Shown here one piece after another: positions 11,432-58,886 of a stretch of 64,000 nt of DNA. The DNA is from Escherichia coli. Lineage in GTDB: Bacteria > Pseudomonadota > Gammaproteobacteria > Enterobacterales > Enterobacteriaceae. The notes under the pieces are model-generated. The model saw only the letters and a program-made list of their open reading frames with translations. It was not told the DNA's origin and ran no database searches. The stretch is from the NCBI RefSeq assembly GCF_045037415.1, contig NZ_CP173438.1; one strand, 5' to 3'. Each line of letters opens with the position of its first letter. Position 1 is the first letter of the stretch. Made by a program: the position numbers and the translations under genes.

Positions 11432-13230
11432 GTTACTTTGGCCTTAATCCAGTAAACCAGAATCAGCAGCTTGACGAAGCAGCATCAAATCCAGCTGGCT
11501 TTAACAGCGATGTTGGTTTTTTCGACAATGCTGTAGGAGCGGCATTGTCTGGTTTGTACTCCGGGCTGGTGGCAAAGCCAGATCAGTTGCTCTGGGCAGG
11601 GATGGATAAAATCGTATCCCCGATTGCTCAGTTTGTTAACGAAAACACCTCGCTCAATGACACTTCAGTTTCATACATTGCCGAGCAGAGAAAACTAGCA
11701 GAGCAGCAGGTTAAGCGGCTGACGCCTGATGCCGCGACAACCGGAACCGCCGGGCAGGTTCTTTATGGGTTGTTCGATATGGGCGGGCAGGCTGTTGTCG
11801 GTACAACGCTCGGTGGTCCTGTCGGAGGTGCAGCGGCGGTAACTTCGCTACAGGGTTTTTCTGAGTTTGAACGGCTGACAGCACAGGGTGTTGATTTCAG
11901 GACAGCGCAGGAAGCGGGATTAGTGCAGGGCATTACTGCTGGGGCCGGGACATTGATCCCTATGAGCCTCGGGTTACGTGCTGGTGGTGCGCTGGCGGAA
12001 GGTGTGGCGGCTCAGCTCGCGCGGACGGGTGAGAGTTCAGTGCGACGCGCCGCAGCAACAGCAGTACGTGCAACGCCAGATATTGCCTATGCCGCAGGTA
12101 CAAATATTGCGTTCGGTATGGCACAGCGTGGGCTTACTGCAAAAACGCTTCGTGATGGTGGCTATAGCGAAATGGCTAACCAGTATGATGTGTTGGATCG
12201 ACAGGCAATTGCTATTGATGCTGTTCTTGGGGTGGCGTTTGGTGGTGTCGGCAGATTTATTAACTCTCGCGGCGAGTCTACAAGCGCACCAAATTTTTCA
12301 CAAGTTGATGTTGATGCTGCACTGGCGGCGAATGCCGCTCATCATGCTGAAATTGATATTGCGCCCGGCGTGCCGATCAACGTGCTTTCGCGCAATTCTC
12401 ACATTCAGGCTCTGCGAAAAGCTATGTCTGATGTTAGCCAAGGGAGACCTGTAGACGTTGCCAGCATTGTTGAGTCTGCATCTTTCAGTGAAATTCCTGG
12501 GCGCAAGAGTCTGCTGTCTCAGGCAGTTAATGAGGCTCTGTCATCTGTAGATGATGGAGTAACGGCGCGCTCTATAGAAAATCGGTTGCTTGAAGAACAG
12601 GCCGCGCAGCTTTTGCCGCGTGGAGATAGACAGGTTTACCAGTCTGAAATCGCTAATAGCCAACGAATTATTGAAAATCTCACTGAACAGCGTGCACAAA
12701 TTCTTGCAGAAGATCCAACCGGTAGCGGTAAAGCTTTGTCTCGTGCTCGATCAGATAAACAGGCCAGACTTCGCGATATTGATCAACGAATCCGGCAGGC
12801 ACAAGAACGCCTGGAATTTTCCCGTAACGCGTTGGCACCGCACGAGCCTGGCGGTCAGTTTTTTGAAGCTCGAGCAGAACTGGCTCGGAGACAGCAGGCA
12901 GAAAGTGAACTTAATGCTCAGGCTGTTTCATTCTATAAAACAGCAGAGGTCAGGACGCCAGACGAAGTAGCTCCTTTTGAGCCTGATAAAATATTGCAAC
13001 AGGCAGAACAAAAAATGATGGCGGATCAGGCGGGAGATATTGATCTGCGCATAGCTGAAGACTCGCTGCTTGAATCACCTGACATGATAATCACCGTGCT
13101 GGATGATGATGGTAATCCACAATCGCGCAGCGCGCGTGAAGTACTGGATGAAGCGAACAGGGAAAGTGAGCAGGCAATACAGGATTCAAGCCTGTTTGAT
13201 GTAGCTGTGGCGTGTTTCTTGAGAGGTTAA
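11428..13230 (+). CDS. Internal virion protein, 600 aa
   Basis: ATGA overlap; Ala/Gly-rich N-terminal half, coiled-coil-like C-terminal half. Confidence 0.55.
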   Translation: MSYFGLNPVNQNQQLDEAASNPAGFNSDVGFFDNAVGAALSGLYSGLVAKPDQLLWAGMDKIVSPIAQFVNENTSLNDTSVSYIAEQRKLAEQQVKRLTPDAATTGTAGQVLYGLFDMGGQAVVGTTLGGPVGGAAAVTSLQGFSEFERLTAQGVDFRTAQEAGLVQGITAGAGTLIPMSLGLRAGGALAEGVAAQLARTGESSVRRAAATAVRATPDIAYAAGTNIAFGMAQRGLTAKTLRDGGYSEMANQYDVLDRQAIAIDAVLGVAFGGVGRFINSRGESTSAPNFSQVDVDAALAANAAHHAEIDIAPGVPINVLSRNSHIQALRKAMSDVSQGRPVDVASIVESASFSEIPGRKSLLSQAVNEALSSVDDGVTARSIENRLLEEQAAQLLPRGDRQVYQSEIANSQRIIENLTEQRAQILAEDPTGSGKALSRARSDKQARLRDIDQRIRQAQERLEFSRNALAPHEPGGQFFEARAELARRQQAESELNAQAVSFYKTAEVRTPDEVAPFEPDKILQQAEQKMMADQAGDIDLRIAEDSLLESPDMIITVLDDDGNPQSRSAREVLDEANRESEQAIQDSSLFDVAVACFLRG

Positions 13231-16310: not shown

Positions 16311-16319
16311 CATGTCACA

Positions 16320-16503: not shown

Positions 16504-16575
16504 TGTGAAATTTCCATCTATAAGCCACCTCAATGTGGCGTCAATGAGTGTAGCACTGACTTTTGTTTCGTCCAC

Positions 16576-16597
16576 AAAAAAGCCCGCGCTGCGGGCT
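16576..16597 (-). terminator. Rho-independent terminator of the reverse cassette
   Basis: GCCCGC-GCT-GCGGGC hairpin followed by a U-run on the minus strand, directly after the 16602 stop. Confidence 0.7.
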
Positions 16598-16601
16598 TCT
16601 A

Positions 16602-18037: not shown

Positions 18038-18196
18038 GATGGCGTCTCCACTTAGCGAATTACATCACCACCGCTGAGAACCAATCAGATGGTGGTGAAC
18101 TGAACGGAGTTGGTCTTACCGGCCTAAGTGGTACCGGCGTCCTTTCGGACCCCCATTCAGCCCACCATAATTCTGGCATGACTGTGCTATACGCAT

Positions 18197-18218: not shown

Positions 18219-18308
18219 TATGCGCCACTTAGTAATCCGGGAGAACCAATCCCGGCACTGGATTTTGCCAGTGCCCGATTACTATGGCACAAGAGGAGTG
18301 CGATGTAA

Positions 18309-18809: not shown

Positions 18810-21461
18810 ATGACGGTTTCAACCGAAGTTGACCACAACGAATACACCGGTAACGGAGCTACGACATCATTTCCGTATACCTTCCGTATTTTCAAAAAAT
18901 CCGACCTGGTTGTTCAGGTGTCTGACCTGAACGGGAACGTAACAGAATTGGTTCTGGATACTGACTACACAGTAACCAATGCTGGAGGATATAATGGCGG
19001 TAATGTAATTCTGTCGAAGGCGTTGGCTAACGGTTATCATATTTCTATATCACGAGAGCTCCCGGTTACGCAGGATACTGATTTGCGTAATCAGGGTAAG
19101 TTCTTCGCTGAGGTACATGAAGACGCGTTCGATAAACTGACAATGCTTATTCAAAAGTGTTTTTCATGGATGAGGTTAGCACTTATAAAACCAAGCATTC
19201 TGGCTAACTATTATGATGCAAAAAATAATAAGATATCAAATCTAGCAAATGCCACTGACAGAAACGATGCTGTCAATAAAGGTTATGTTGATGATCTTTT
19301 TACTGGAGGTGTAACGCCTACATCTAACAGCGCTAAAAACGATATTTTTACAAATCACCAAAGAAAGATTGTAGCTACGATGCCGCTTCTTTTTCCTGAA
19401 TATGATGCGATTATGGCTGCTAACCCGTCAGCAACTTATATGTATCCTCAAGGATTCTGCGTTAGCGAAGATTTGATATACATCACTTATCCATTTGAGC
19501 CTAAACAGACGAATAATGTCGTCGCAGTATTTAACATATCTGGTATTTATCAAGGTTATTTCTATGTTCAGGCTGGCGGCCCAGGCTTCGCTGCTGAAGG
19601 AATCGTGGTTACGTCAGACTATGGCCCCAAAAAAATGTTTGTTGGTCACACAAACGGAATACTGCGTGAATTTAATATGGAGGGGGCATTATACGGAAGC
19701 AATCTGCCTCTTGTACAAAACCATGATGTTGGATTATTCAACCAGTTCAGCTACAGAAGAGGTATATGGCTCGTTGAGCAGAATGCGCCAGAAGTAGGAC
19801 AGAAAATCACAAGAACTGTACTTGCAGTGTTCGACAGTGGTTTCAATCGCCTGTCAACTATAACGCTGCCGTTACATGATGTTGGGTATGTAACTAAAAG
19901 CACCTCACCTTATGCGCCTTATTTCAACAAGCGTCAGGGTATTGCGGTAGGTGATAACTACTTTGTCTGCGGCTATGGCGGCTTCATAGCTGATGGGGCA
20001 GGAAGCGCAGGATATAACGAATATCAGGGCAGCAAAGTTTTTAACCCTGACGGTACAAAGCGAACTGAATCAATGCTTCATCCTCAGGCCATGATGGATT
20101 TAATGAAAGCCGCAGGATTGAACGTCACTCGCATAGAAAATGAAGGCGTTTGTGTTTCTCAGGATGGAAAATCCATTTATTCACTTTACATTCATCAGGA
20201 AAGAACTGGCTCTGAACCTTACAATTCAGGTTTGGTTATTTTCGAAGATTTCTCCACTGATAAAGATGCTATCGATTTTACACCTGCATCCAGGCTTTAC
20301 CGCGGATTTGATATCGATCACGCGAGCATTGGGGTATATCCCCGTAGTGCGAAGGGGATTGTTAACCCTGTAGATGGTACGTTGTTCACTAACATGACTG
20401 AAATTCTTCGCTATATGCAGGAGATGAGTCAGAAGGCATTTAATTTTTACACAGGGACTGTCAGCATTGCTGATATATCTGGCGTGGCAATCCCTTCCAG
20501 CACATATGTTGAAATACTGAATGCGAATAATCAGACTTTTATAGTCAACTATTATTCATCTGATAGTGGCATTAGTTATTTGGTTGCAACTAATCCTTCT
20601 GGTGACTTTGTATTTGTGCGCCAGCGACCGGCACAGTGGGCATCTAACTTAACCATTCAGCAAAACGCAGATCCTGATACAAACCAATTAAACCGCATCA
20701 CTGCATCATCATATGCCGGTGCAACTACAAACTCTCAGAAAATATTGGTCCTTGACCAGCAGGCTACAGCTAGCGCAAATAGCTTGGTATTGGGCGGTAG
20801 TTCTTCTGTGTTTAGGTCTGCCACCACGGTGGATATTGCATGCAACAGCGACCCGACAGCATTGGGAGGAACCATACGCTGGCGGTTTTATGATACAGGT
20901 CTTCGCCCGTTTGCTGACAATACCTATAATTTTGGTCAGGCATCGTTTCGTATTAAAGACGCCTACTTTGCAAATGCCCCAACCGTTTCATCAGATGCCA
21001 CGCTGAAAACCAATCCCGAGGCAATATCAGATTTAAGTGAAATGCTTTCTTCTGATAGAGACAGCATTCTTGATGCCTGGGGCGATATTTCTGTTGTGGC
21101 GTATCGATGGCTCGACGCTATATCCATGAAGGGCGATGGTGCCAGATGGCATTTTGGCGTCATGGCTCAGCAGGTAAGGGATGTATTCTTGGCGCACGGA
21201 ATTGATGGAACCAGATTTGGCCTTCTTTGCTATGACGAGTGGGATGATATTTTTGAGCCGGTAATCGCGACTAAAGAGATTACCGATACGTCTGGTGAGT
21301 TGGTCACCGTCGAATATGACACCGGAGAACAGAGGCTGGTTAAAAAAGCGGGTAGTTCATGGGGTATACGGCCTGACCAGTGCGCTTGGCTTGAGGCTGC
21401 ATATCAGCGCCGTCGATGCGATCGTATTGAAGAGCGACTCGAACTATTGGAATCAAAATAA
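18810..21461 (+). CDS. Tailspike protein with C-terminal intramolecular chaperone (peptidase S74-like) domain, 883 aa
   Basis: RBS CTGGAG; conserved-looking N-terminal virion-anchor region; C-terminal block (RWHFGVMAQQVRDVF...) resembles the self-cleaving chaperone domain of endosialidases and tail fibres. Confidence 0.75.
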   Translation: MTVSTEVDHNEYTGNGATTSFPYTFRIFKKSDLVVQVSDLNGNVTELVLDTDYTVTNAGGYNGGNVILSKALANGYHISISRELPVTQDTDLRNQGKFFAEVHEDAFDKLTMLIQKCFSWMRLALIKPSILANYYDAKNNKISNLANATDRNDAVNKGYVDDLFTGGVTPTSNSAKNDIFTNHQRKIVATMPLLFPEYDAIMAANPSATYMYPQGFCVSEDLIYITYPFEPKQTNNVVAVFNISGIYQGYFYVQAGGPGFAAEGIVVTSDYGPKKMFVGHTNGILREFNMEGALYGSNLPLVQNHDVGLFNQFSYRRGIWLVEQNAPEVGQKITRTVLAVFDSGFNRLSTITLPLHDVGYVTKSTSPYAPYFNKRQGIAVGDNYFVCGYGGFIADGAGSAGYNEYQGSKVFNPDGTKRTESMLHPQAMMDLMKAAGLNVTRIENEGVCVSQDGKSIYSLYIHQERTGSEPYNSGLVIFEDFSTDKDAIDFTPASRLYRGFDIDHASIGVYPRSAKGIVNPVDGTLFTNMTEILRYMQEMSQKAFNFYTGTVSIADISGVAIPSSTYVEILNANNQTFIVNYYSSDSGISYLVATNPSGDFVFVRQRPAQWASNLTIQQNADPDTNQLNRITASSYAGATTNSQKILVLDQQATASANSLVLGGSSSVFRSATTVDIACNSDPTALGGTIRWRFYDTGLRPFADNTYNFGQASFRIKDAYFANAPTVSSDATLKTNPEAISDLSEMLSSDRDSILDAWGDISVVAYRWLDAISMKGDGARWHFGVMAQQVRDVFLAHGIDGTRFGLLCYDEWDDIFEPVIATKEITDTSGELVTVEYDTGEQRLVKKAGSSWGIRPDQCAWLEAAYQRRRCDRIEERLELLESK

Positions 21462-23458: not shown

Positions 23459-23473
23459 ATTGAGTGGGAATGA
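23459..23473 (+). other. guaA: Retained 3' end of guaA (IEWE-stop) at the prophage-host junction; probable att core region
   Basis: ATTGAGTGGGAATGA encodes IEWE plus stop, matching the GMP synthase C-terminus as I recall it; an in-frame TAA sits 2 codons upstream, so the guaA body is not present here. Confidence 0.6.
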
Positions 23474-23501
23474 TTTGACCCTGCACTATGAATGAACAAA
23501 A

Positions 23502-23527
23502 CCCTCTGTTACTACAGAGGGTTTTTT
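23502..23527 (+). terminator. Rho-independent terminator (guaA terminator)
   Basis: CCCTCTGT-TACT-ACAGAGGG hairpin followed by TTTTTT. Confidence 0.8.
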
Positions 23528-23565
23528 ATCCTAAAGAATTATAGGTTTGAAGTTACTAACATCGT

Positions 23566-24105
23566 TTAGTTAAACCAGCTATCTGATTTATTCTCTTCTG
23601 CTTTACCCACGCTTTTCATCAGATCGCGACCGCCTTCAGTCATATTTCTGTTTGCGTCAGCTTCAGATTGCACCACATCGGTTTGCGCAGCTTTGTGCTT
23701 CAGTTCCTGATCGATAAATTCGTTTTCGCGCTTAACGCGGGCTTCTTCTTTCGCCAGCGCCAGTTTTTGTTTCTGAATCTCTAAGCTACGTAGCTCATCT
23801 TCATAACTTTGATCGCGTTTTTTGTCCGCAGTGGCTTCGGCGTCCAGTTTATCCTGACGAGCTTTCTTATTCGCTGCTGCCGTTGCCGCTCTTTTATTAG
23901 CCGCGGCCTGGGCGTTTGCGCGACGTTGCTTCTCTTGCTGGATTTCCCTGTTGCGCTCCGCGACCCATTCGTCATGCTGCCTTTGCTCTTCATTTTTACC
24001 TTGCTGTTCCGCTTCTGCGACAGCCGAGAGTTGATCCTGCAATGATGAGGCGATAGCCGGATAGCTTAAGGAGGCTAAGATGGCGCAAAGAAAAACTTTC
24101 TTCAT
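23566..24105 (-). CDS. yfgI: Uncharacterised protein YfgI
   Basis: 179-aa product with signal peptide and charged coiled-coil; matches K-12 neighbourhood. Confidence 0.85.
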   Translation of the reverse strand: MKKVFLCAILASLSYPAIASSLQDQLSAVAEAEQQGKNEEQRQHDEWVAERNREIQQEKQRRANAQAAANKRAATAAANKKARQDKLDAEATADKKRDQSYEDELRSLEIQKQKLALAKEEARVKRENEFIDQELKHKAAQTDVVQSEADANRNMTEGGRDLMKSVGKAEENKSDSWFN

Positions 24106-24120
24106 GACTCCTCCTGATTA

Positions 24121-24639
24121 TTAGCTCTTTTCAGGACATTTGGTATTTGGCTGAATACGCGTTTCGTTATACGTCGTGGTAATAACAACGGCTAAACCTG
24201 TCGTAAACTGGCACTCTTTACCCACTTGGGTGGAGGTATACACTTTGGTGCCTTCCTTATATGTTAAAGAAACACCTTCCACTAAGGTTTTATCATTCAC
24301 CATAGAACCCGCTGCCGCGCCTACAGCTCCGCCGCCAACTGCACCTGCCGTCGTTCCGGAATTGCTGCCAGACCCGACGTTGTGGCCGATAACACCGCCA
24401 GCGACAGCGCCAATAAGCGCGCCGAAGGCTTGTGCGTTCCGTTTATTTTGGGCGTTGTCTACGGCAACTTTTGCGGGAAGAATGGAAATAATATTAACGG
24501 TTTTAGTTTCTTGTTTGGTATTCAGTTGATCGGTTTGATAAACATCGGCGGCATGATCATCAGCATTTGACTGGCATCCTGCCAGAGTGAATGACGCTAA
24601 CATTGCCACAGGCAGAAGACATTTTTTAAATTTCATCAC
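24121..24639 (-). CDS. yfgH: Glycine-zipper outer-membrane lipoprotein YfgH
   Basis: 172 aa, lipobox LAGC, Gly-rich zipper region. Confidence 0.85.
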   Translation of the reverse strand: MMKFKKCLLPVAMLASFTLAGCQSNADDHAADVYQTDQLNTKQETKTVNIISILPAKVAVDNAQNKRNAQAFGALIGAVAGGVIGHNVGSGSNSGTTAGAVGGGAVGAAAGSMVNDKTLVEGVSLTYKEGTKVYTSTQVGKECQFTTGLAVVITTTYNETRIQPNTKCPEKS

Positions 24640-24940
24640 TATTCCTTGTTATACACATTACGAAAAATAAGACATTTAAGATCATCAAAAGAGGAAAGTA
24701 AATGTATTGCGTATAAAGGAATAGATTAAATTTATTAAAATTCATGTGGGGAATAATTTATAAAAATACATCATCACAACATATGTATTAATGATGTATT
24801 TATTTCGCAGCCGAACTGCAGTCAGAACAAAGACGTAAAATTTAAGATGAAAGAATATCTGCCGCTTTGATAATCTCAAAGAGCAAAAGCATCCGACAGC
24901 GAGGTGCCGTTATGTTCTGTGAGAGTGGAGAAGGTAACCG

Positions 24941-25132
24941 CTAACGTTGTACCGGTGATTCGACGGAGAGTGTGGATTGCTGAGCTTCTTTTTTGCTCTG
25001 ATGGTGCTGCCAGGCACCGACGGACGAGTAGATAAAACGGCCAAAGAAGAAGATAAAGCTGATGAGCAGTACGATACGGGTCATGCGACTGTTAAATCGG
25101 TGTCGTTTTCGCATACTGGTTGCCTGACTCAC
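24941..25132 (-). CDS. yfgG: Small protein YfgG (63 aa)
   Basis: Size, TM segment and position between yfgH and the c-di-GMP phosphodiesterase gene. Confidence 0.75.
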   Translation of the reverse strand: MSQATSMRKRHRFNSRMTRIVLLISFIFFFGRFIYSSVGAWQHHQSKKEAQQSTLSVESPVQR

Positions 25133-25483
25133 AAAAGGTTCCTTGAAGTATGTCCCACGCCGTGGACGGTACTTACATTAAGGCACAACAGGACAAAATG
25201 GTCAATTCTTCGTTATGTAAAGAAGCGTCAGTGAATACATATTTTAATGTTATGGAAGTTAATTTAATTATTTACAATGATGATGTAATAATGATGAGTT
25301 AACATGATAAACGTAATAATTCATTAATCAGGGTTATTTTGTTTGATATATATCAATTGGAACTTTCATATGACACTTAGAATCATTGCTCTCTATAGTG
25401 ATGAATAATCATCATTCGAAGTCAGGTGGGATGCCTGTCTGAATACACCTCCTTCAGGATGTGGGGGATTCTGCTGAGCATCT

Positions 25484-27727
25484 ATGAAACTGAATGCAAC
25501 TTATATAAAAATACGTGATAAATGGTGGGGGCTTCCGCTGTTCCTGCCTTCTTTAATCTTGCCCATTTTCGCCCACATTAATACTTTCGCGCATATTTCT
25601 TCCGGTGAAGTTTTTCTCTTTTATCTGCCACTGGCACTGATGATCAGCATGATGATGTTTTTCAGCTGGGCGGCATTGCCAGGGATCGCCTTAGGGATTT
25701 TTGTCCGCAAATATGCAGAGCTGGGTTTTTACGAAACGCTCTCATTAACGGCTAATTTTATTATCATTATCATTCTCTGTTGGGGCGGTTACAGGGTTTT
25801 TACCCCCCGGCGTAACAACGTTTCACATGGTGATAGCCGTTTAATTTCCCAGCGACTATTCTGGCAGATTGTGTTTCCTGCAACGCTGTTTCTGATACTT
25901 TTCCAGTTTGCTGCGTTTGTAGGGTTACTGGCGAGCAGAGAAAATCTGGTCGGCGTCATGCCCTTTAACCTCGGGACCTTAATCAATTATCAGGCCTTGC
26001 TGGTGGGTAATCTGATTGGTGTCCCGCTGTGCTACTTTATCATTCGGGTGGTGCGAAATCCGTTTTATTTACGTAGCTATTATTCGCAATTAAAACAGCA
26101 GGTTGATGCCAAAGTTACCAAAAAAGAGTTCGCAATCTGGCTACTGGCATTAGGTGCCTTATTGTTGCTGTTATGCATGCCGTTAAATGAAAAAAGCACG
26201 ATTTTTAGCACCAATTACACCTTGTCATTATTGCTGCCCCTGATGATGTGGGGAGCGATGCGCTATGGTTATAAGTTGATTTCATTGCTCTGGGCGGTCG
26301 TGTTGATGATCAGCATCCATAGCTATCAAAATTACATTCCCATTTATCCTGGCTATACCACGCAGCTGACCATAACCTCCTCCAGTTATCTGGTATTCTC
26401 TTTTATTGTCAATTATATGGCTGTACTGGCAACCCGTCAGCGAGCTGTAGTCAGACGCATTCAGCGGCTTGCGTATGTGGACCCGGTGGTTCATCTGCCA
26501 AATGTTCGCGCCCTGAATCGCGCGTTGCGTGATGCCCCCTGGTCTGCGCTATGCTATTTACACATCCCTGGCATGGAAATGCTGGTTAAGAACTATGGCA
26601 TCATGCTGCGGATTCAATACAAGCAAAAACTTTCTCACTGGCTGTCACCATTGCTGGAACCGGGTGAAGATGTTTATCAGCTTTCGGGTAACGATCTCGC
26701 GCTGCGGCTGAATACAGAATCGCACCAGGAGCGCATTACCGCACTGGATAGCCATCTCAAGCAATTTCGTTTCTTTTGGGATGGAATGCCGATGCAACCG
26801 CAGATTGGCGTCAGTTACTGCTATGTGCGCTCGCCAGTGAATCATATCTACCTGCTGCTGGGAGAGCTAAATACGGTGGCCGAACTTTCCATCGTGACCA
26901 ACGTCCCGGAAAATATGCAGCGTCGCGGAGCAATGTATTTGCAACGCGAATTGAAAGATAAAGTCGCGATGATGAATCGACTACAGCAGGCGCTGGAACA
27001 CAACCATTTTTTCCTGATGGCCCAGCCGATTACCGGTATGCGTGGTGATGTTTACCATGAAATTCTTCTGCGCATGAAGGGTGAGAATGATGAGCTGATC
27101 AGCCCCGATAGCTTCTTACCGGTCGCGCACGAATTTGGTTTATCGTCGAGTATCGACATGTGGGTCATTGAGCATACGCTGCAATTTATGGCTGAAAACA
27201 GAGCGAAGATGCCCGCTCACCGTTTTGCTATTAATCTGTCTCCAACCTCGGTATGTCAGGCTCGTTTTCCTGTTGAAGTCAGTCAGCTGCTGGCTAAATA
27301 TCAGATTGAAGCGTGGCAACTTATTTTTGAAGTCACCGAAAGTAATGCTCTGACCAATGTTAAGCAGGCGCAAATCACCTTGCAGCATCTTCAGGAATTA
27401 GGCTGCCAGATTGCGATTGATGATTTCGGCACCGGCTACGCCAGCTATGCGCGGCTTAAAAATGTGAATGCCGATCTGCTTAAAATTGACGGCAGTTTTA
27501 TCCGCAATATTGTGTCAAATAGTCTGGATTATCAGATAGTGGCGTCGATTTGCCACCTGGCGCGAATGAAGAAAATGCGGGTAGTGGCAGAGTACGTTGA
27601 AAACGAAGAGATCCGCGAGGCGGTGCTCTCTTTGGGGATCGATTATATGCAGGGTTATCTTATTGGTAAGCCGCAACCGTTAATTGATACGCTGAATGAA
27701 ATCGAACCCATTCGCGAAAGTGCCTGA
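25484..27727 (+). CDS. pdeF: Membrane-anchored cyclic-di-GMP phosphodiesterase PdeF (YfgF)
   Basis: 747 aa; multi-TM N-terminus, degenerate GGDEF and EAL domain (EVTES...DDFGTGYAS). Confidence 0.9.
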   Translation: MKLNATYIKIRDKWWGLPLFLPSLILPIFAHINTFAHISSGEVFLFYLPLALMISMMMFFSWAALPGIALGIFVRKYAELGFYETLSLTANFIIIIILCWGGYRVFTPRRNNVSHGDSRLISQRLFWQIVFPATLFLILFQFAAFVGLLASRENLVGVMPFNLGTLINYQALLVGNLIGVPLCYFIIRVVRNPFYLRSYYSQLKQQVDAKVTKKEFAIWLLALGALLLLLCMPLNEKSTIFSTNYTLSLLLPLMMWGAMRYGYKLISLLWAVVLMISIHSYQNYIPIYPGYTTQLTITSSSYLVFSFIVNYMAVLATRQRAVVRRIQRLAYVDPVVHLPNVRALNRALRDAPWSALCYLHIPGMEMLVKNYGIMLRIQYKQKLSHWLSPLLEPGEDVYQLSGNDLALRLNTESHQERITALDSHLKQFRFFWDGMPMQPQIGVSYCYVRSPVNHIYLLLGELNTVAELSIVTNVPENMQRRGAMYLQRELKDKVAMMNRLQQALEHNHFFLMAQPITGMRGDVYHEILLRMKGENDELISPDSFLPVAHEFGLSSSIDMWVIEHTLQFMAENRAKMPAHRFAINLSPTSVCQARFPVEVSQLLAKYQIEAWQLIFEVTESNALTNVKQAQITLQHLQELGCQIAIDDFGTGYASYARLKNVNADLLKIDGSFIRNIVSNSLDYQIVASICHLARMKKMRVVAEYVENEEIREAVLSLGIDYMQGYLIGKPQPLIDTLNEIEPIRESA

Positions 27728-27732
27728 ATAAT

Positions 27733-27759
27733 GCGGGCCGACATTTCTCGTCGGCCCGC
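27733..27759. terminator. Bidirectional terminator between pdeF and ppx
   Basis: GCGGGCCGAC-N7-GTCGGCCCGC hairpin between convergent genes. Confidence 0.6.
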
Positions 27760-27765
27760 AAAGCA

Positions 27766-31378
<3,613 letters not shown>

Positions 31379-31549
31379 TACCACTTTTACTCCGTTTTAT
31401 TCACGGGACACTGCCTGGATATTATGGCGAGCAATATTGGCAGATGTCCAACTATGCCAGAAAAGGGGGAAAAAAACTGCTGGAGCTTGCGATTTACAGG
31501 TGAATTGAAAAACGCCAGCGGCAGAGCTGGCGCTTTAACTACGGGGGCA

Positions 31550-32187
31550 TTACTCGTCGGCAGCGTAGCCCTGCGGCGGCAGACGTTGACCATCCAGCCA
31601 CGCGGCGTTTTCGTGCATTTTCAGACGACCATCGGCAAACCAGCTAATCACCAGTGGATAAATAGCGTGTTCCTGGGTTTGCACGCGGGCGGTGATGTCA
31701 TCTTCCGTATCACCAGCAAATACCGGGACTTTCGCCTGTAAAATAACCGGGCCACCGTCCAGTTCATCGGTGACGAAATGCACCGATGTACCGTGCTCTT
31801 CATCGCCATTTTCCAGCGCCTGACGATGGGTGTGTAATCCGGGATATTTCGGCAGCAGAGAAGGGTGAATGTTCAGCAAACGCCCAGCATAGTGGGAGAC
31901 AAACGCCGGGCTGAGAATGCGCATAAAACCAGCCAGCACGACCACATCGGGTGCGTACATGTCGATTTCATGAATCAACTCCCGGTCATAGGCTTCACGA
32001 CTGTCAAACGCGCTGGTGATGAGCGTATGCGTTGCAATACCCGCCTGGCGGGCGCGTTCAAGGCCGAACGCGTCGGCCTTATTGCTGAAAACTGCCCGTA
32101 CGGTGCCTTTAATTTTGTTGGTTTTGCAGGCGTCAATAATTGCCTGCAAATTACTTCCGTTGCCGGAAATAAGCACCACAATATTCA

Positions 32188-32188
<1 letters not shown>
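31550..32188 (-). CDS. purN: Phosphoribosylglycinamide formyltransferase
   Basis: 212 aa PurN. Confidence 0.95.
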
Positions 32189-33243
<1,055 letters not shown>

Positions 33244-33288
33244 TTACTTGCGGTAGAAAAATAAAATTCGGCGCAATTCTAACAGGGA

Positions 33289-33304
33289 AAGCAAACGTTT
33301 GCGA
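33289..33304. promoter_or_regulatory. PurR operator (PUR box) of purMN
   Basis: AAGCAAACGTTTGCGA with palindromic core GCAAACGTTTGC upstream of purM. Confidence 0.75.
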
Positions 33305-33501
33305 GACTGCTTTACACAACCTTTTTGCACGTCTTTTCCCCAGGCGCGCGGCGAAAGAATACTTGTACCAGGGCAAAGGATCGTTTTCGGATGGAATAAT
33401 CTTCTTTCATAACTATTTGAATATAAAATAACTTTATCTCAAACCGTTATCATTTTGACTAAAGTCAACGAAAATAATATTGCCGCCTTGAAGAAAGGAG
33501 G

Positions 33502-33523
33502 TATAATCCGTCGATTTTTTTTG
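33502..33523 (+). promoter_or_regulatory. upp promoter -10 and UTP-sensitive initiation region
   Basis: TATAAT followed by GATTTTTTTTG, the T-tract start region described for reiterative transcription at upp. Confidence 0.75.
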
Positions 33524-33549
33524 TGGCTGCCCCTCAAAGGAGAAAGAGT

Positions 33550-34176
33550 ATGAAGATCGTGGAAGTCAAACACCCACTCGTCAAACACAAGCTGGGACTG
33601 ATGCGTGAGCAAGATATCAGCACCAAGCGCTTTCGCGAACTCGCTTCCGAAGTGGGTAGCCTGCTGACTTACGAAGCGACCGCCGACCTCGAAACGGAAA
33701 AAGTAACTATCGAAGGCTGGAACGGCCCGGTAGAAATCGACCAGATCAAAGGTAAGAAAATTACCGTTGTGCCAATTCTGCGTGCGGGTCTGGGGATGAT
33801 GGACGGTGTGCTGGAAAACGTTCCGAGCGCGCGCATCAGCGTCGTCGGTATGTACCGTAATGAAGAAACGCTGGAGCCGGTACCGTACTTCCAGAAACTG
33901 GTTTCTAACATCGATGAGCGTATGGCGCTGATCGTTGACCCAATGCTGGCAACCGGTGGTTCCGTTATCGCGACCATCGACCTGCTGAAAAAAGCGGGCT
34001 GCAGCAGCATCAAAGTTCTGGTGCTGGTAGCTGCACCAGAAGGTATCGCTGCGCTGGAAAAAGCGCACCCGGACGTCGAACTGTATACTGCATCGATTGA
34101 CCAGGGACTGAACGAGCACGGATACATTATTCCGGGCCTCGGCGATGCCGGTGACAAAATCTTTGGTACGAAATAA
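33550..34176 (+). CDS. upp: Uracil phosphoribosyltransferase
   Basis: 208 aa from [14 protein letters not shown]; ORF track start is upstream in frame. Confidence 0.95.
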
Positions 34177-34191
34177 AGAATAAAAATAATT

Positions 34192-34221
34192 AAAGCCGAC
34201 TTTAAGAGTCGGCTTTTTTTT
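34192..34221 (+). terminator. Hairpin terminator/attenuator between upp and uraA
   Basis: AAAGCCGAC-N8-GTCGGCTTT followed by T-run. Confidence 0.7.
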
Positions 34222-34261
34222 GAGTAAAGCGCCTATAACACATAATACAGAGGATAATACT

Positions 34262-35551
34262 ATGACGCGCCGTGCTATCGGGGTGAGTGAAAGACCGCCA
34301 CTTTTACAGACAATCCCGCTTAGTTTGCAACATTTGTTCGCCATGTTTGGTGCAACCGTCCTGGTGCCCGTCTTATTTCATATTAACCCGGCGACTGTAC
34401 TGTTATTTAACGGTATAGGAACACTGCTGTATCTCTTCATCTGTAAAGGGAAAATTCCGGCTTATCTTGGTTCCAGCTTTGCCTTTATTTCACCGGTATT
34501 GTTACTGTTGCCGTTGGGGTATGAAGTCGCGCTGGGCGGCTTTATTATGTGCGGCGTGCTGTTCTGCCTGGTTTCTTTTATCGTGAAGAAAGCGGGGACC
34601 GGCTGGCTGGACGTGCTGTTTCCACCTGCGGCAATGGGCGCAATCGTTGCCGTCATCGGTCTGGAGCTGGCGGGCGTAGCTGCCGGTATGGCGGGTTTAC
34701 TCCCGGCTGAAGGGCAAACGCCAGACTCCAAAACCATCATCATCTCTATTACCACCCTGGCGGTCACGGTTTTAGGTTCCGTGCTGTTTCGTGGTTTCCT
34801 GGCAATTATCCCGATTTTAATTGGCGTGCTGGTGGGGTACGCGCTCTCTTTCGCAATGGGAATTGTCGATACCACGCCGATTATTAATGCTCACTGGTTT
34901 GCGCTGCCGACCCTCTATACGCCGCGCTTCGAGTGGTTTGCCATTCTGACTATTCTGCCAGCGGCGTTAGTGGTTATTGCCGAACACGTAGGGCACCTGG
35001 TAGTAACGGCTAATATCGTCAAAAAAGATCTGCTGCGCGATCCAGGTCTGCACCGTTCGATGTTTGCTAACGGCTTGTCGACCGTGATCTCCGGCTTCTT
35101 TGGCTCCACGCCAAACACCACTTACGGAGAAAACATTGGCGTGATGGCGATCACCCGTGTTTACAGTACCTGGGTTATCGGCGGTGCGGCGATTTTCGCT
35201 ATCCTGCTTTCCTGCGTCGGTAAACTGGCTGCTGCTATCCAGATGATTCCATTGCCGGTGATGGGCGGCGTTTCGCTGCTGCTTTACGGTGTCATCGGTG
35301 CTTCCGGTATTCGTGTGTTGATCGAATCGAAAGTGGATTACAACAAAGCACAGAACCTGATCCTGACTTCCGTGATTTTGATCATCGGCGTCAGTGGCGC
35401 GAAGGTAAACATTGGGGCGGCGGAGCTGAAAGGTATGGCGCTGGCGACCATCGTCGGTATCGGCTTAAGTTTGATCTTCAAACTGATTAGTATGCTGCGC
35501 CCTGAAGAAGTGGTGCTGGACGCAGAAGACGCGGATATAACAGACAAATAA
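34262..35551 (+). CDS. uraA: Uracil:proton symporter
   Basis: 429 aa from [15 protein letters not shown]; NCS2 family. Confidence 0.95.
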
Positions 35552-35645
35552 TGTACCGACCGGGCAGTGTTGCTGCCCGGTTCAAACATCATGGGATTCT
35601 GTGGTAAACTTCTCGCGATTTTGTGAAATCCTGGTTGAGGTATCT

Positions 35646-36347
35646 CTGAACACACCGGCACAGCTCTCTTTGCCACTTTATCTTCCTGACGACGAAACCT
35701 TTGCAAGTTTCTGGCCGGGGGATAACTCCTCTTTACTGGCCGCGCTGCAAAACGTGCTGCGTCAGGAACATAGCGGTTACATCTATCTCTGGGCACGCGA
35801 AGGCGCGGGGCGCAGCCATCTGCTGCACGCGGCTTGCGCGGAATTGTCGCAGCGTGGCGATGCGGTGGGCTATGTCCCGCTGGATAAACGCACCTGGTTT
35901 GTTCCGGAAGTGCTCGACGGTATGGAGCATTTGTCGCTGGTCTGTATTGACAACATTGAGTGTATTGCCGGCGATGAGTTGTGGGAGATGGCGATTTTCG
36001 ATCTCTACAATCGAATTCTGGAATCGGGCAAAACACGGTTGTTGATCACCGGCGATCGTCCACCGCGGCAGTTGAATCTGGGATTACCGGATCTCGCGTC
36101 GCGTCTCGACTGGGGGCAGATCTACAAATTGCAGCCACTTTCTGATGAAGATAAGTTGCAGGCGCTACAGTTACGCGCGCGTTTGCGTGGTTTTGAACTG
36201 CCGGAAGATGTGGGGCGTTTCTTGCTGAAGCGGCTCGACAGAGAAATGCGCACGTTGTTTATGACGCTGGATCAGCTGGATCGTGCGTCGATTACCGCGC
36301 AACGCAAGCTGACCATTCCTTTTGTGAAAGAAATTCTGAAGTTGTAG
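35646..36347 (+). CDS. hda: DnaA-inactivating protein Hda
   Basis: AAA+ protein; start placed at the CTG codon (LNTPAQ...) per the published revised start; an in-frame GTG lies at 35601. Confidence 0.85.
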
Positions 36348-36360
36348 ATAAGGTGTTTAT

Positions 36361-36459
36361 TGTCGGATGCGGCGCGAACGCCTTATCCGACCTACGCGAA
36401 GTTAATCCATAGTATTCGTAGGCCGGATAAGACGCGGCAAGCGTCGCATCCGGCAATGT
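36361..36459. repeat. REP/BIME element (two inverted REP units)
   Basis: GCCGGATGCGGCG...CGCCTTATCCGGCCTAC-type palindromic units. Confidence 0.8.
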
Positions 36460-36484
36460 GCTTCAACTAGCGATGGAGCACATC

Positions 36485-36844
36485 TTAACCCACGATTTCC
36501 AGTACCTGCTCCGGTGGACGACCAATCCGTGCTTTGCCATTCGCGACCACAATCGGGCGTTCCATTAGTTTCGGATTATCCACCATCGCCTGAATCAGCG
36601 CCTCTTCGCTAAGTGAACTGTCAGCCAGGTTCAGTTCTTTATAAAGATCCTCTTTTTGGCGCATCAATTCACGAGCGCTATTCATCCCCAGCATTTTCAG
36701 CAAATCACGCAGCGTTGCCGCATCGGCGGGTGTCTCAAGGTAGAGCACCACTTCTGGCTCCACGCCGTTTTCTTTCAGCAGGTTCAGCGTTTCCCGGCTC
36801 TTTGAACAGCGTGGGTTATGGTAGATTTTTACCTGTTTGGTCAT
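36485..36844 (-). CDS. yfgD: ArsC-family protein YfgD
   Basis: 119 aa; CSKSR thioredoxin-like motif. Confidence 0.9.
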   Translation of the reverse strand: MTKQVKIYHNPRCSKSRETLNLLKENGVEPEVVLYLETPADAATLRDLLKMLGMNSARELMRQKEDLYKELNLADSSLSEEALIQAMVDNPKLMERPIVVANGKARIGRPPEQVLEIVG

Positions 36845-36864
36845 TGTTCTTCCTTTAATGCGAA

Positions 36865-38328
36865 TTACATCTTGGTATAAGGCTTAAAGCGTTCCTGCAG
36901 CTGGCGCAACTGGTCGATGCGCGCATCGTAACGCGCTTGTTGCAGGCTGCCTAATTTCACCTGCGAACTGGCGCTACTCAACAAGGAAATAGCCTGATCG
37001 AGTCGCCCGGCGAGCGCATAACCTTCTGCTCGCGCAGCCAGTTCCTGATCGCGGTTATTTAGTGCGGCTTCCGCCTGTGCCAGTAAATCCCAGCCGTTGC
37101 TGTCATCTTTATTGTTAAAAGTGTAGCGATTCAGAATATTGGCCGCTTCCTGTGGTTGCCCCCCTTGCAGATAAGCGTTCGCCAGGTTGAGCTGCAACAC
37201 CGGATTGGTGCGCAAATCGCGGGCATTTTTCAGGCGATTGATAGCGTCATTGGCTTTGTTTTGCCCAAGATCGATATCGGTAGCCAGATCGAGATACCAT
37301 GCGTTGCCAGGTTCTGCTGCCAGTAACGGTTGCAGCGTTTTACGCGCTTCGTCGTATTTATTGGCTTCCATCGCCTGTAGAGCACGACCATATTGCGCCG
37401 CTCGTTGCTGACGAACGTTTCCTTTCGCCCATTCATCCAGCAAATCACTGGTGAGCTGGTTACGTCCGGAATTATACATCCCCAGTGTGCGCGCTTTCGC
37501 CAGATAGAAATCTTCCGACGACTGCACCACCATCGGGCGCATCTGATTAGCACGGTTGCGGGCATCTGCCAGACGACTTTCCGGCAACGGGTGAGTCAAT
37601 AAAATTTCCGGCGGACGCGAGGAGTAACGCGCCTGATCGAGTAATTTTTCGAGGAAGGTCGGCATCGCCTGCGGATCGAATCCCGAGCGTTGCAGCACCT
37701 GAATACCAATGCGGTCCGCTTCCTGTTCATTTTGCTGGGTGAAACTGATCATCCCCTGGCGCGTTCCCGCCAGTGTACCGGTCAGCGCCGCCATCCCCGC
37801 CTGCGGACTGGCCATCGCCAGTAAAATAGAACCTAACGCGCCGACCCAGGTCAGCGGCGCGCTGCGCTGCTGATCTTCCATCGCTCGCGCCAGGTGACGT
37901 TGGGTGACGTGGGAGATTTCGTGCGCCATAACTGAAGCCAGTTGACTTTCGTTATCGGAATAACGGAACAGGGCAGAGTGCAGCACCACGTTGCCGCCAA
38001 AGAAAGCAAAGGCGTTAATTTCGTCGTTGTTGATCAGAAAGAAATGAAACGGTGTCTTAACCGAATTGGCATGCGAAACCAGACGCATTCCTAGCGAATT
38101 AATATATTGCGTTAATAGCGGGTCATTAATTAACGGCGCGCTGCCGCGTAACTGGCGGACATAATAGTCGCCCATCTGCATTTCCTGACCAATGGAAAGT
38201 GTGCTTCCTGCGGAGGTTCCCATATCCGGCAAGGTGTCTGCGCTGTCGGCAAACGCCGGGGCTACCTGACCAATGGTCATAGCAGCAATGAGGGTTGCAA
38301 CCAGGTTTTTTTTCAACTGCCTGAACAT
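36865..38328 (-). CDS. bepA: Beta-barrel assembly-enhancing protease BepA (YfgC)
   Basis: 487 aa; signal peptide, HEISH zinc motif (M48) and TPR region. Confidence 0.95.
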
Positions 38329-38540
38329 AACCTCTATCCTGTATTTCTGGAGATAGTCATTTGACCGATACTGTGAAATATCGTTCCCACCGCGCCGCCT
38401 TTGAGTGTAACGACGAAGATTAGCCCACTCAAATAACTTTTCAGTTTCCTGAATCCGTCATAAAAAGCGAAGTCTTTTTTGTGACATTTCGATACAATTG
38501 CGGATCGCAATCCCGCTCTTGAGGTTCAGGTAAGGTCTGT

Positions 38541-39602
38541 ATGCTCGAAATGTTGATGCAATGGTATCGCCGCCGTTTTAGCGACCCGGAAGCGATTGCC
38601 TTGCTGGTTATTTTAGTCGCCGGATTTGGCATTATCTTTTTCTTTAGTGGCCTGCTTGCTCCGTTGCTGGTGGCTATTGTGCTGGCCTATTTGCTGGAGT
38701 GGCCAACCGTGCGCCTGCAATCTATTGGCTGTTCCCGCCGCTGGGCGACGTCGATTGTATTGGTGGTTTTCGTCGGTATATTGCTACTGATGGCGTTCGT
38801 GGTTCTGCCTATTGCCTGGCAGCAGGGCATCTACTTAATCCGCGATATGCCGGGGATGCTCAATAAGCTTTCTGACTTTGCCGCCACGTTGCCGCGCCGC
38901 TATCCGGCGTTAATGGATGCGGGCATTATTGATGCAATGGCCGAAAATATGCGCAGTCGGATGCTGACCATGGGCGATTCGGTGGTGAAAATTTCCCTCG
39001 CCTCGTTGGTCGGTTTGCTGACCATTGCCGTCTATCTGGTGCTGGTGCCATTGATGGTCTTCTTCCTGCTGAAAGACAAAGAGCAGATGCTGAACGCCGT
39101 TCGCCGGGTGCTGCCGCGCAACCGTGGACTGGCAGGACAGGTGTGGAAGGAGATGAATCAACAAATCACCAACTATATCCGCGGCAAAGTGCTGGAGATG
39201 ATCGTGGTAGGGATCGCCACCTGGCTGGGGTTCTTGCTCTTTGGGCTGAACTATTCGCTGCTGCTGGCGGTGCTGGTCGGCTTCTCGGTACTTATTCCGT
39301 ACATTGGCGCATTTGTGGTGACCATTCCGGTGGTTGGCGTGGCGCTATTCCAGTTTGGTGCTGGCACGGAATTCTGGAGCTGCTTCGCGGTGTATCTGAT
39401 TATTCAGGCGCTGGACGGCAACCTGTTAGTACCGGTGTTGTTCTCCGAAGCGGTTAACCTGCATCCTCTGGTGATTATTTTATCGGTGGTGATCTTCGGT
39501 GGTTTGTGGGGATTCTGGGGCGTATTCTTCGCTATTCCATTGGCGACGCTGATCAAAGCCGTGATTCACGCCTGGCCTGATGGGCAAATCGCGCAAGACT
39601 GA
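38541..39602 (+). CDS. perM: AI-2E family permease PerM (YfgO)
   Basis: 353 aa polytopic membrane protein. Confidence 0.9.
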   Translation: MLEMLMQWYRRRFSDPEAIALLVILVAGFGIIFFFSGLLAPLLVAIVLAYLLEWPTVRLQSIGCSRRWATSIVLVVFVGILLLMAFVVLPIAWQQGIYLIRDMPGMLNKLSDFAATLPRRYPALMDAGIIDAMAENMRSRMLTMGDSVVKISLASLVGLLTIAVYLVLVPLMVFFLLKDKEQMLNAVRRVLPRNRGLAGQVWKEMNQQITNYIRGKVLEMIVVGIATWLGFLLFGLNYSLLLAVLVGFSVLIPYIGAFVVTIPVVGVALFQFGAGTEFWSCFAVYLIIQALDGNLLVPVLFSEAVNLHPLVIILSVVIFGGLWGFWGVFFAIPLATLIKAVIHAWPDGQIAQD

Positions 39603-39699
39603 CCTTCAGCGAAAAATTTGAAACGAGTGTTGCAGGGCAGTGAGAAGATTTGAGATGTGCTGGCCGCAAGCGCAGCCAGCACGGAATGGAGCAAAGTAA

Positions 39700-40170
39700 T
39701 CAGGCGTGTTCTTTCAGCCAGTTCAGCACAACGTCGTGGTGATTGCTGGTTTTGAAATCGTCAAAGACATGTTCGATTTTGCCATCAGCGTCAATCAGGA
39801 AGCTGATGCGATGAATACCATCGTAGGTTTTGCCCATGAAGGACTTTTCACCCCAGACGCCGAATTGTTCGCACACCTGGTGGTCCTCATCAGACAGGAG
39901 CGTAAAGTTAAGCAGCTCTTTTTCCGCAAAACGGGAGAGTTTTTCGGGTTTATCGGTGCTGATACCCAGCACATCAACGCCCGCTTTTTTCAACTCATCC
40001 ATGTTATCGCGTAAGCCGCAGGCCTGTACGGTACAGCCGGGGGTCATGGCTTTCGGGTAGAAATAAACCAGAACACGCTGTCCCTGGAAGTCGGTCAAAT
40101 TAACTTGTTCTCCGTCTTGATCCGGCAAGCTAAATTTCGGTGCGATATCACCGGCTTTCAGTGGATTCAT
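39700..40170 (-). CDS. bcp: Thiol peroxidase Bcp (peroxiredoxin)
   Basis: 156 aa; catalytic Cys context MTPGCT. Confidence 0.95.
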   Translation of the reverse strand: MNPLKAGDIAPKFSLPDQDGEQVNLTDFQGQRVLVYFYPKAMTPGCTVQACGLRDNMDELKKAGVDVLGISTDKPEKLSRFAEKELLNFTLLSDEDHQVCEQFGVWGEKSFMGKTYDGIHRISFLIDADGKIEHVFDDFKTSNHHDVVLNWLKEHA

Positions 40171-40742
40171 TACTTAACTCCATCCTGTTCATCATGTTGG
40201 GAATAATTGACGACGTTAATACTGCCTTGTGCATTGAGTTCTGTACATAGGGCTTTGAACGCTTGCTCAATATTTGCTGCGTCCGCAGATGCGGGGCTGT
40301 GGGCAGTTATCTGAATATGTAACTGCGCAGCCCGTTCATTTTCAGCAGGTTGCGTGCGCGACACCAGCTCCGCAATGTTCATATGATGCGCGTCGAAAAG
40401 TGCTGTGAAGCGTTCAATTAAATGCGGGGAGTCTGCCACATCGACCTGAACCCAGACAGATGCTGGCATTGGTGGACGCGGACGCGCCGTCGTGCGCTTC
40501 ATCACGATTAAAAGATCCAGTTCGGCACCTTTCAACGGTAACGTTGATTCAATCAGGGTGATTGCATTCCATGAACCGGAAAGCAGCATGATAAACGTGA
40601 ACTCTTCTCCCAGCATCGCCAGGCGACTGTCTTCAATATTACAGCCGCAACTACTGACATGACGGGTGATGGTGTTCACTATTCCAGGGCGATCGGCACC
40701 CAACGCAGTGATCACCAGATAATGTTGCGATGACAGTGTCAA
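40170..40742 (-). CDS. gcvR: Glycine cleavage system transcriptional repressor GcvR
   Basis: 190 aa from TTG start (TLSSQHYLVITALGADRPG); stop overlaps bcp start. Confidence 0.9.
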   Translation of the reverse strand: MTLSSQHYLVITALGADRPGIVNTITRHVSSCGCNIEDSRLAMLGEEFTFIMLLSGSWNAITLIESTLPLKGAELDLLIVMKRTTARPRPPMPASVWVQVDVADSPHLIERFTALFDAHHMNIAELVSRTQPAENERAAQLHIQITAHSPASADAANIEQAFKALCTELNAQGSINVVNYSQHDEQDGVK

Positions 40743-40887
40743 ACTGGTTATTCCTTCAAGGGGTGAGTTGTTCTTAAGGAAAGCATAAAAAAAACATGCA
40801 TACAACAATCAGAACGGTTCTGTCTGCTTGCTTTTAATGCCATACCAAACGTACCATTGAGACACTTGTTTGCACAGAGGATGGCCC

Positions 40888-41766
40888 ATGTTCACGGGAA
40901 GTATTGTCGCGATTGTTACTCCGATGGATGAAAAAGGTAATGTCTGTCGGGCTAGCTTGAAAAAACTGATTGATTATCATGTCGCCAGCGGTACTTCGGC
41001 GATCGTTTCTGTTGGCACCACTGGCGAGTCCGCTACCTTAAATCATGACGAACATGCTGATGTGGTGATGATGACGCTGGAGCTGGCTGACGGGCGCATT
41101 CCGGTGATTGCCGGGACCGGTGCTAACGCTACTGCGGAAGCCATTAGCCTGACGCAGCGCTTCAATGACAGCGGTATCGTCGGCTGCCTGACGGTAACCC
41201 CTTACTACAATCGTCCGTCGCAAGAAGGTTTGTATCAGCATTTCAAAGCCATCGCTGAACATACTGACCTGCCGCAAATTCTGTATAATGTGCCGTCCCG
41301 TACTGGCTGCGATCTGCTCCCGGAAACGGTGGGCCGTCTGGCGAAAGTAAAAAATATTATCGGAATCAAAGAGGCAACAGGGAACTTAACGCGTGTAAAC
41401 CAGATCAAAGAGCTGGTTTCAGATGATTTTGTTCTGCTGAGCGGCGATGATGCGAGCGCGCTGGACTTCATGCAATTAGGCGGTCATGGGGTTATTTCCG
41501 TTACGGCTAACGTCGCAGCGCGTGATATGGCCCAGATGTGCAAACTGGCAGCAGAAGGGCATTTTGCCGAGGCACGCGTTATTAATCAGCGTCTGATGCC
41601 ATTACACAACAAACTATTTGTCGAACCCAATCCAATCCCGGTGAAATGGGCATGTAAGGAACTGGGTCTTGTGGCGACCGATACGCTGCGCCTGCCAATG
41701 ACACCAATCACCGACAGTGGTCGTGAGACGGTCAGAGCGGCGCTTAAGCATGCCGGTTTGCTGTAA
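40888..41766 (+). CDS. dapA: 4-hydroxy-tetrahydrodipicolinate synthase
   Basis: 292 aa from [17 protein letters not shown]. Confidence 0.95.
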
Positions 41767-57841: not shown

Positions 57842-58886
57842 ATGCGATATCGCATTTTCCTTCTCTTTTTTTTCGCTTTGTTGCCGATGTCTTTGGTGTG
57901 GGCGGCACCAGCGCAACGGGCGTTTTCCGACTGGCAGGTCACCTGTAATAATCAAAATTTCTGTGTAGCGCGCAATACGGGCGATCATAATGGACTGGTG
58001 ATGACCCTGAGCCGCAGCGCCGGGGCGCATACCGATGCCGTTTTACGTATTGAGCGCGGCGGGTTGAAGTCGCCGGATGCGTCAGAAGGGGAGATAGCGC
58101 CACGGCTGCTGTTAGATGGTGAGCCGTTGGCGTTAAGTGGTGACAAGTGGCGGATTTCACCATGGTTATTAGTAACCGATGATACGGCAACCATCACCGC
58201 GTTTTTGCAGATGATTCAGGAAGGGAGGGCGATCACCTTACGCGACGGCAATCAGACTATTTCTCTGAGTGGCTTAAAAGCGGCGTTGTTGTTTATTGAT
58301 GCCCAGCAAAAGCGCGTTGGCAGTGAGAACCGCGTGGATAAAGAAAGGGGACGAACCGCCGCTCAGCGTACCGCCAGCGCCTGCGCTGAAAGAGGTCGCG
58401 GTGGTTAACCCAACGCCGACGCCACTCTCACTCGAAGAACGTAACGATTTGCTGGATTATGGAAACTGGCGGATGAATGGTCTGCGCTGTTCGCTTGATC
58501 CGTTACGTCGTGAGGTGAATGTCACTGCGCTGACCGATGATAAAGCGCTGATGATGATTAGCTGTGAGGCAGGGGCCTATAACACCATTGATTTGGCATG
58601 GATTGTGTCGCGTAAAAAGCCGCAGGCCTCGCGCCCGGTACGGTTGCGTTTGCCGTTCAACAACGGTCAGGAGACCAATGAACTGGAACTGATGAACGCA
58701 ACATTCGATGAAAAATCGCGTGAACTGGTGACCTTAGCAAAAGGGCGCGGATTAAGCGATTGTGGCATTCAGGCGCGCTGGCGCTTTGACGGTCAGCGTT
58801 TTCGCCTGGTGCGTTACGCCGCAGAACCCACCTGCGATAACTGGCATGGGCCAGACGCCTGGCCCACGTTGTGGATCACCCGTTAA
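57842..58886 (+). pseudogene. ypfG: ypfG (DUF1176 periplasmic protein) apparently interrupted by a frameshift
   Basis: Two overlapping ORFs in different frames (57842-58408 and 58296-58886) together span the expected length of about 347 aa; switch point near GATAAAGAAAGGGG (58338-58352). Confidence 0.6.

Follow-up and report, generated by a model that had tools for sequence, protein, structure and literature searches.

The one-base frameshift in ypfG of an Escherichia coli ST131 assembly is very probably a nanopore basecalling artifact at a methylated GAGACC site

The window, that is, the whole stretch of 64,000 nucleotides of Escherichia coli DNA analyzed here, belongs to ST131, and its best matches include O25b:H4, JJ1887, JJ2434, ZH193, and 81009. 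Toward its end lies ypfG, with aegA and nudK upstream and tktB and talA downstream. The gene is distributed over two overlapping open reading frames (ORFs):

57842..58886, + strand: ypfG, encoding a signal-peptide-bearing DUF1176 protein; 1,045 nt here, against 1,044 nt in the intact ST131 allele
57842..58408, + strand: upstream ORF, 188 aa, ATG start; 162 native residues, then 26 out of frame
58296..58886, + strand: downstream ORF, 196 aa, TTG start; the C-terminal half of ypfG

The two ORFs share 113 nt, and the downstream one runs in the +1 frame relative to the upstream one ((58296 - 57842) mod 3 = 1), its codons 1-11 being out-of-frame readthrough. Intact YpfG (347 aa) matches DUF1176 (PF06674) at full length with 357.6 bits, above the gathering score, over profile positions 1-322, of which the upstream ORF matches 1-137 and the downstream ORF 136-322. 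Since the two ORFs jointly span the profile range of the intact protein, they represent a single ypfG. The split is truly present in the sequence, and the two ORFs together with their DUF1176 coverage confirm the view taken in an earlier note that the locus is a ypfG gene divided by a frameshift. No Shine-Dalgarno sequence was found before any candidate start of the downstream ORF. An identical ypfG sequence is labeled a "frameshifted" pseudogene by PGAP in strains 446, Esc11, 447, and 98194. A search of PDB sequences with intact YpfG returned no match, and the literature on ypfG yielded nothing on pseudogenization and nothing informative on function, most matches concerning an unrelated acronym.

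Alignment to relatives, which the earlier note had proposed, was run against the intact ST131 allele WP_001270494.1 (strain SK1144; 347 aa, 1,044 nt) and returned a single difference, one extra A at 58328/58329 that converts GAGACC to GAGAACC:

58325..58331, + strand: Eco31I/RM.EcoMI site reading GAGAACC (true GAGACC), very probably miscalled; one A of 58328-58329 would be spurious and makes up the whole lesion

The gain of one nucleotide that had been suggested is borne out by this alignment (1,045 against 1,044 nt). Its supposed position is not: the extra base had been placed in the A/G-rich run GATAAAGAAAGGGG, yet this run (58337-58350) is the same in the window and in the intact allele, and the extra base lies about 10 nt upstream, inside GAGACC. 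Once one A is dropped at 58328/58329, ypfG in this strain almost certainly encodes the intact 347-aa DUF1176 protein.

RM.EcoMI, a type IIS restriction-modification system of the Eco31I type described from ST131 (Forde et al. 2015, PMC4659465), recognizes GAGACC/GGTCTC. In EC958, 100% of GAGACC sites carry GAG-m6A-CC, and GGT-m5C-TC is predicted on the complementary strand (PMC4659465); both marks have been detected in nanopore data of ATCC 25922 (PMC12679398), which, according to our search for the locus, encodes the system. The A inserted in ypfG duplicates the m6A position of GAG-m6A-CC, opposite GGT-m5C-TC. Among 5,426 complete E. coli genomes, 634 carry the RM.EcoMI locus, most ST131 as well as Nissle 1917 and ATCC 25922 among them; in EC958 it lies in the leuX island, adjoining mcrBC. 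Clade B strains of ST131 are reported to be without the system (PMC4659465). The methyltransferase check covered Esc11 and 446, in which the locus was reached by synteny; in both, the two Eco31I-family methyltransferases are intact and are the proteins found in EC958 (WP_001295726.1 and WP_001295727.1).

The endonuclease gene of the same locus differs between these genomes. In Esc11, a chromosomal resistance module (33626-41729 in locus coordinates; ISEcp1-blaCTX-M-15 / Tn3 / IS26 / aac(6')-Ib-cr / blaOXA-1 / truncated catB3) is inserted between the Eco31I C5-methyltransferase and the endonuclease gene, which it shortens to 1,671 nt, compared with 1,740 nt in EC958, while both methyltransferases remain intact. 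In 446, the endonuclease (about 15115-16855 in locus coordinates) is annotated in two pieces owing to an extra T in GATC, where GGGATCTGG is read as GGGATTCTGG; this could be a basecalling error at a Dam site or a real inactivation. As for the motif itself, the window contains 2 called copies of GAGACC/GGTCTC (6 true copies) against about 18 expected, and we counted no copy over 40 kb of JJ1887, 3 over 75 kb of the EC958 core, and 11 over 50 kb of its leuX island. GAGACC/GGTCTC is strongly rarer than expected in core sequence, a depletion in which restriction avoidance and codon-usage effects are not separated. An enrichment of the motif in mobile elements has been reported (PMC4659465) and agrees with these counts.

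The window offers further copies of the motif for comparison, several of them in a prophage that occupies positions 1-23458 and adjoins yfgI; in JJ1887, guaA/guaB occupy the equivalent position. The prophage encodes a portal protein, a major capsid protein, a T7 gp14-like core protein, a tail fiber, holins, and a GH19 endolysin. It is nearly identical in the Taiwanese strains 439, 446, 447, and 463, in S1-KEN-05-A (Switzerland), and in A1.S1.18 (Poland), and was not found in the Esc assemblies at comparable coverage. Two sequence differences within it lie elsewhere than in the motif. At the equivalent of window positions 23198-23203, a run of six C is read as five directly before CCTGG, a Dcm site, in 463 and A1.S1.18; the lost C puts a DUF2514 gene out of frame in these two assemblies, which are unrelated, and has the look of a typical homopolymer error. 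At the equivalent of window position 495, S1-KEN-05-A has C -> T, turning CAG into TAG in the portal gene, which is annotated with an "internal stop"; the change is private to that assembly. The motif copies compared were as follows, the true state at the three prophage sites being defined by the agreement of the references S1-KEN-05-A, A1.S1.18, and Ec55:

18076..18082, + strand: prophage Eco31I site, true GAGACC; GAGAACC in the window and in 446, GAAACC in 463, correct in 447 and 439
18241..18247, + strand: prophage Eco31I site, true GAGACC; GAGAACC in the window and in 447 and 463, GAAACC in 439, correct in 446
18815..18820, + strand: prophage Eco31I site, true GGTCTC; GGTTTC in the window, GGTTCTC in 446, 447, 463, and 439
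58671..58676, + strand: second Eco31I site in ypfG; correct in the window, GAAACC in 447, GAGTCC in 98194
12444..12449, + strand: control Eco31I site; correct in the window and in all comparators

Four of the six true Eco31I sites in the window are miscalled, and these make up four of the five differences between the window and the reference over 64 kb (binomial P = 9e-13). Each prophage site occurs in three states among the window, 446, 447, 463, and 439, in combinations that are mutually incompatible, and the pattern of miscalls in the window exactly matches none of the other four. Such patterns in near-identical isolates cannot stem from descent. A comparison over 50 kb finds six differences between strain 439 and the window, four of them in GAGACC/GGTCTC-type sites. 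Several Eco31I sites in Esc11 and two in the window are read correctly, indicating that the error depends on the site. Outside these motifs, the window carries T at 19323, where all seven comparators have C (CTACACCTAAC); this private difference, lying in no recognized motif, could be a real SNP or another error. The T of the window at 63755, in maeB, recurs in the Esc assemblies and in most ST131 genomes; in 439 the base is G, and MaeB has received a new protein accession. Strains 446 and 463 each show one mismatch to the window within 39001-64000 (25 kb).

The same anomaly recurs beyond the window. In Esc11, fecA is annotated as "frameshifted" at a GAGAACC where K-12 reads GAGACC, and an exact probe for this insertion matched 16 of the 5,426 genomes, namely 446, 447, and 14 Esc assemblies, which belong to two of the projects that carry the ypfG insertion. 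The two carrier sets overlap only in part: Esc11 has both insertions, Esc10 (and others) has that in ypfG without that in fecA, and Esc15 has that in fecA without that in ypfG. Across 32 kb of the leuX island, 446 and EC958 differ at five positions, four of them within three Eco31I sites; three of the six Eco31I sites of this region are miscalled in 446 relative to EC958, and one of the miscalls frameshifts a GTPase gene. Esc11 reads GGTTTC at a site of this island where 446 reads GGTCTC. Motif-specific anomalies are thus present at several sites in all three groups of carriers. Additionally, the miscalled GGTCTC at 18815-18820 sits at the 5' end of the tail-fiber gene, just past its reference start, and in the Taiwanese assemblies PGAP has moved that start from 18808 to about 18918, with a new protein accession. 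The shifted start is a second annotation casualty of the GAGACC/GGTCTC artifact.

The distribution of the ypfG insertion was determined with a 60-nt probe centered on the extra A, exact matches being counted among the 5,426 complete genomes. The probe matched 27, comprising 23 "Esc" assemblies, the Taiwanese strains 446, 447, and 463, and the Egyptian strain 98194, which come from three projects or submitter groups; the same sequence minus one base matched another 1,512. Within 39001-64000, the extra A alone separates the window from many ST131 genomes, and JJ1887 matches 23459-39537 at 100% identity. Over 25-64 kb, ST131 varies too little for flanking SNPs to resolve the kinship of the carriers, which span at least three otherwise distinct ST131 backgrounds. 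Non-carriers lie inside the carrier clones: ypfG is intact in 439 (chromosome of 5,215,416 bp), which shares its project and the prophage with 446, 447, and 463, and in Esc15 (5,156,502 bp). At the protein level, a collection of about 15 billion proteins, assemblies of public runs included, has the intact YpfG allele on at least 1,000 contigs and lacks the exact 188-aa truncated product; this absence is weak evidence, since pseudogenes receive no protein record from NCBI.

All 27 carriers come from the three projects, and the two of these with published methods used only nanopore sequencing of native DNA. The Taiwanese isolates were sequenced with ONT R10.4.1 alone, using a native ligation kit, and assembled with Flye, with no mention of short reads; 439 and 447 came from one patient, and 446, 463, 532, and 536 from another (PMC12379366). 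EG-98194 was likewise sequenced with ONT R10.4.1 alone and processed with Flye, racon, and medaka (PMC11672413). For the Esc series, a search for a methods paper found none. Errors of this general kind have precedents: methylation-linked nanopore errors differ among the assemblies of a single outbreak clone (Lohde et al. 2024, PMC11610573), nanopore errors follow lineage-specific methyltransferase motifs (Chiou et al. 2023, PMC10687267), and about 75% of the false indels in native R10 data fall on or next to methylated bases (Bogaerts et al. 2025, PMC12506013).

Taken as a comparison of assembled sequences, these results make it very probable that the extra A in ypfG stems from systematic nanopore error, in basecalling and consensus, at a methylated GAGACC and not from a mutation. 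The change lies at or adjacent to the methylated base within a defined motif; the matching methyltransferases are intact in the affected genomes Esc11 and 446; the motif is hit repeatedly, in the window, in fecA, between 446 and EC958, and at the second ypfG site in 447 and 98194; the calls differ within one clone in ways incompatible with descent; and the Taiwanese strains and EG-98194 were sequenced as native DNA on nanopores, without short reads. Some observations point the other way: Eco31I sites in the window and in Esc11 were in part read correctly, and the insertion is very consistent at the ypfG site (23 Esc assemblies, three of the four Taiwanese strains, and 98194), a consistency that by itself would also fit inheritance. 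The likely course of events begins with RM.EcoMI, which would methylate GAG-m6A-CC on one strand and GGT-m5C-TC on the other. The two modified bases presumably distort the nanopore current in native DNA, and the basecaller would then insert a base (GAGAACC / GGTTCTC) or substitute one (GAAACC / GGTTTC, occasionally GAGTCC). Because such an error would be systematic in the reads, a long-read consensus would fail to remove it and would keep it. Which call wins appears to differ from assembly to assembly, with small differences in coverage or strand balance probably deciding. At 58325-58331, the insertion form would have won, shifting the ypfG frame by +1 and leading PGAP to report a frameshifted pseudogene. 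The assembly from which the window derives probably has the same nanopore origin.

The observations were weighed against several other readings. A real +1 A insertion, inherited in an ST131 sublineage and truncating YpfG after residue 162, would account for an identical insertion in 27 complete genomes from three submitter groups, for an extra A that does not lie in a homopolymer, and for the frameshifted pseudogene called by PGAP. However, the carriers do not form a single clade, the prophage of the window being missing from the Esc assemblies, and each clone includes a non-carrier (439 and Esc15). Furthermore, the site is an Eco31I motif, other copies of which show insertions and substitutions in incompatible patterns, every carrier project with published methods is nanopore-only, and the insertion is missing from every PacBio or hybrid ST131 genome among the 5,426. 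We consider inheritance very unlikely. The earlier note had left the choice between a genuine pseudogene of this strain and a homopolymer sequencing error. The former is contradicted by the intact ypfG of the sisters 439 and Esc15 and by miscalls at further copies of GAGACC/GGTCTC, distributed in a way that clonal descent could not bring about. Sequencing error holds up, though not of the homopolymer type, as a single A became AA at a motif methylated on both strands. An indel arising in the A/G-rich run itself would have company in these assemblies, given the loss of one C in the DUF2514 gene of 463 and A1.S1.18, but the run is unchanged and the only difference lies at 58328/58329; the likelihood of this reading is negligible. 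Variation arising in vivo would offer another route to differing isolates. If the restriction-modification system made Eco31I sites mutational hotspots through m5C deamination and slippage, the isolates would be truly heterogeneous; GGTCTC -> GGTTTC is indeed the change expected from deamination of 5-methylcytosine, and GAGACC is strongly depleted in core sequence. Nevertheless, hypermutation would require that half or more of the sites changed separately in every isolate of a near-invariant clone, with an insertion and a substitution at the same site in sister isolates. The sites are also intact in EC958, JJ1887, and hundreds of other ST131 genomes, and insertions are not a product of deamination, so that hypermutation is extremely improbable as the explanation. 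The related claim, that Eco31I-type sites are in vivo hotspots in ST131 and that some of the variants, possibly including the ypfG insertion, reflect real heterogeneity, is highly improbable in its turn; were it true, core genes would be poor in GAGACC as the result of an ongoing loss of sites.

Two overlapping ORFs, and nothing more, speak for programmed +1 frameshifting by the ribosome or for the idea, raised in the earlier note, that this lineage has two separate genes here. The extra base occurs in 27 of the 5,426 genomes and in no other matched ST131/B2 allele, and the wide occurrence of the intact 347-aa protein, on at least 1,000 contigs, opposes both ideas. As a separate gene, the downstream ORF would be without a Shine-Dalgarno sequence and would lack the signal peptide. 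The chance that either applies is minute. A scar of Eco31I cleavage and repair was also considered. Eco31I/BsaI cleaves outside its recognition site, and the extra base is inside it, so this candidate was rejected.

If ypfG was indeed miscalled, the finding has no biological consequence for the gene and matters for data quality. Nanopore-only assemblies of strains carrying RM.EcoMI can be expected to contain predictable false frameshifts and false SNPs at GAGACC/GGTCTC. The spurious annotations met so far concern ypfG (27 RefSeq genomes), fecA (16), the GTPase gene, and the misplaced start of the tail-fiber gene. The artifact also creates apparent differences between isolates from the same patient, and the same-patient differences at ypfG, fecA, and other Eco31I sites are artifacts of this GAGACC/GGTCTC kind. 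At least one published study of within-host evolution rests on nanopore-only Flye assemblies of 439, 447, 446, and 463 (PMC12379366), and calls of gene presence or absence or of pseudogenes made from these assemblies may need to be re-checked. Masking or correcting GAGACC/GGTCTC, or polishing with short reads, would remove the errors.

Compared with RM.EcoMI as described in EC958 (PMC4659465), the recognition sequence and the two methyltransferase proteins are the same in Esc11 and 446. The system lies outside the window and would act as the cause through the effect of methylation on the nanopore signal, with no functional link to ypfG. The resemblance to documented methylation errors of nanopore sequencing is close. 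As in those, the anomalies lie at or next to a base methylated by a strain-specific methyltransferase, recur with the motif, survive consensus, vary within an outbreak clone, and produce false allelic differences; indels at methylated positions are likewise known from native R10 data, one paper reporting them. The differences are that GAGACC/GGTCTC is not named in PMC11610573, PMC10687267, or PMC12506013, that the ypfG case is known from assembled sequence, and that the +1 insertion dominates here, whereas the literature describes mostly purine/purine or pyrimidine/pyrimidine substitutions. With the frameshifted pseudogenes that PGAP annotates in E. coli, ypfG shares two overlapping ORFs over one conserved protein and the "frameshifted" flag. 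It departs from them in that its lesion neither follows inheritance within the carrier clones nor appears independently of sequencing platform, and for these reasons it should not be treated as gene decay.
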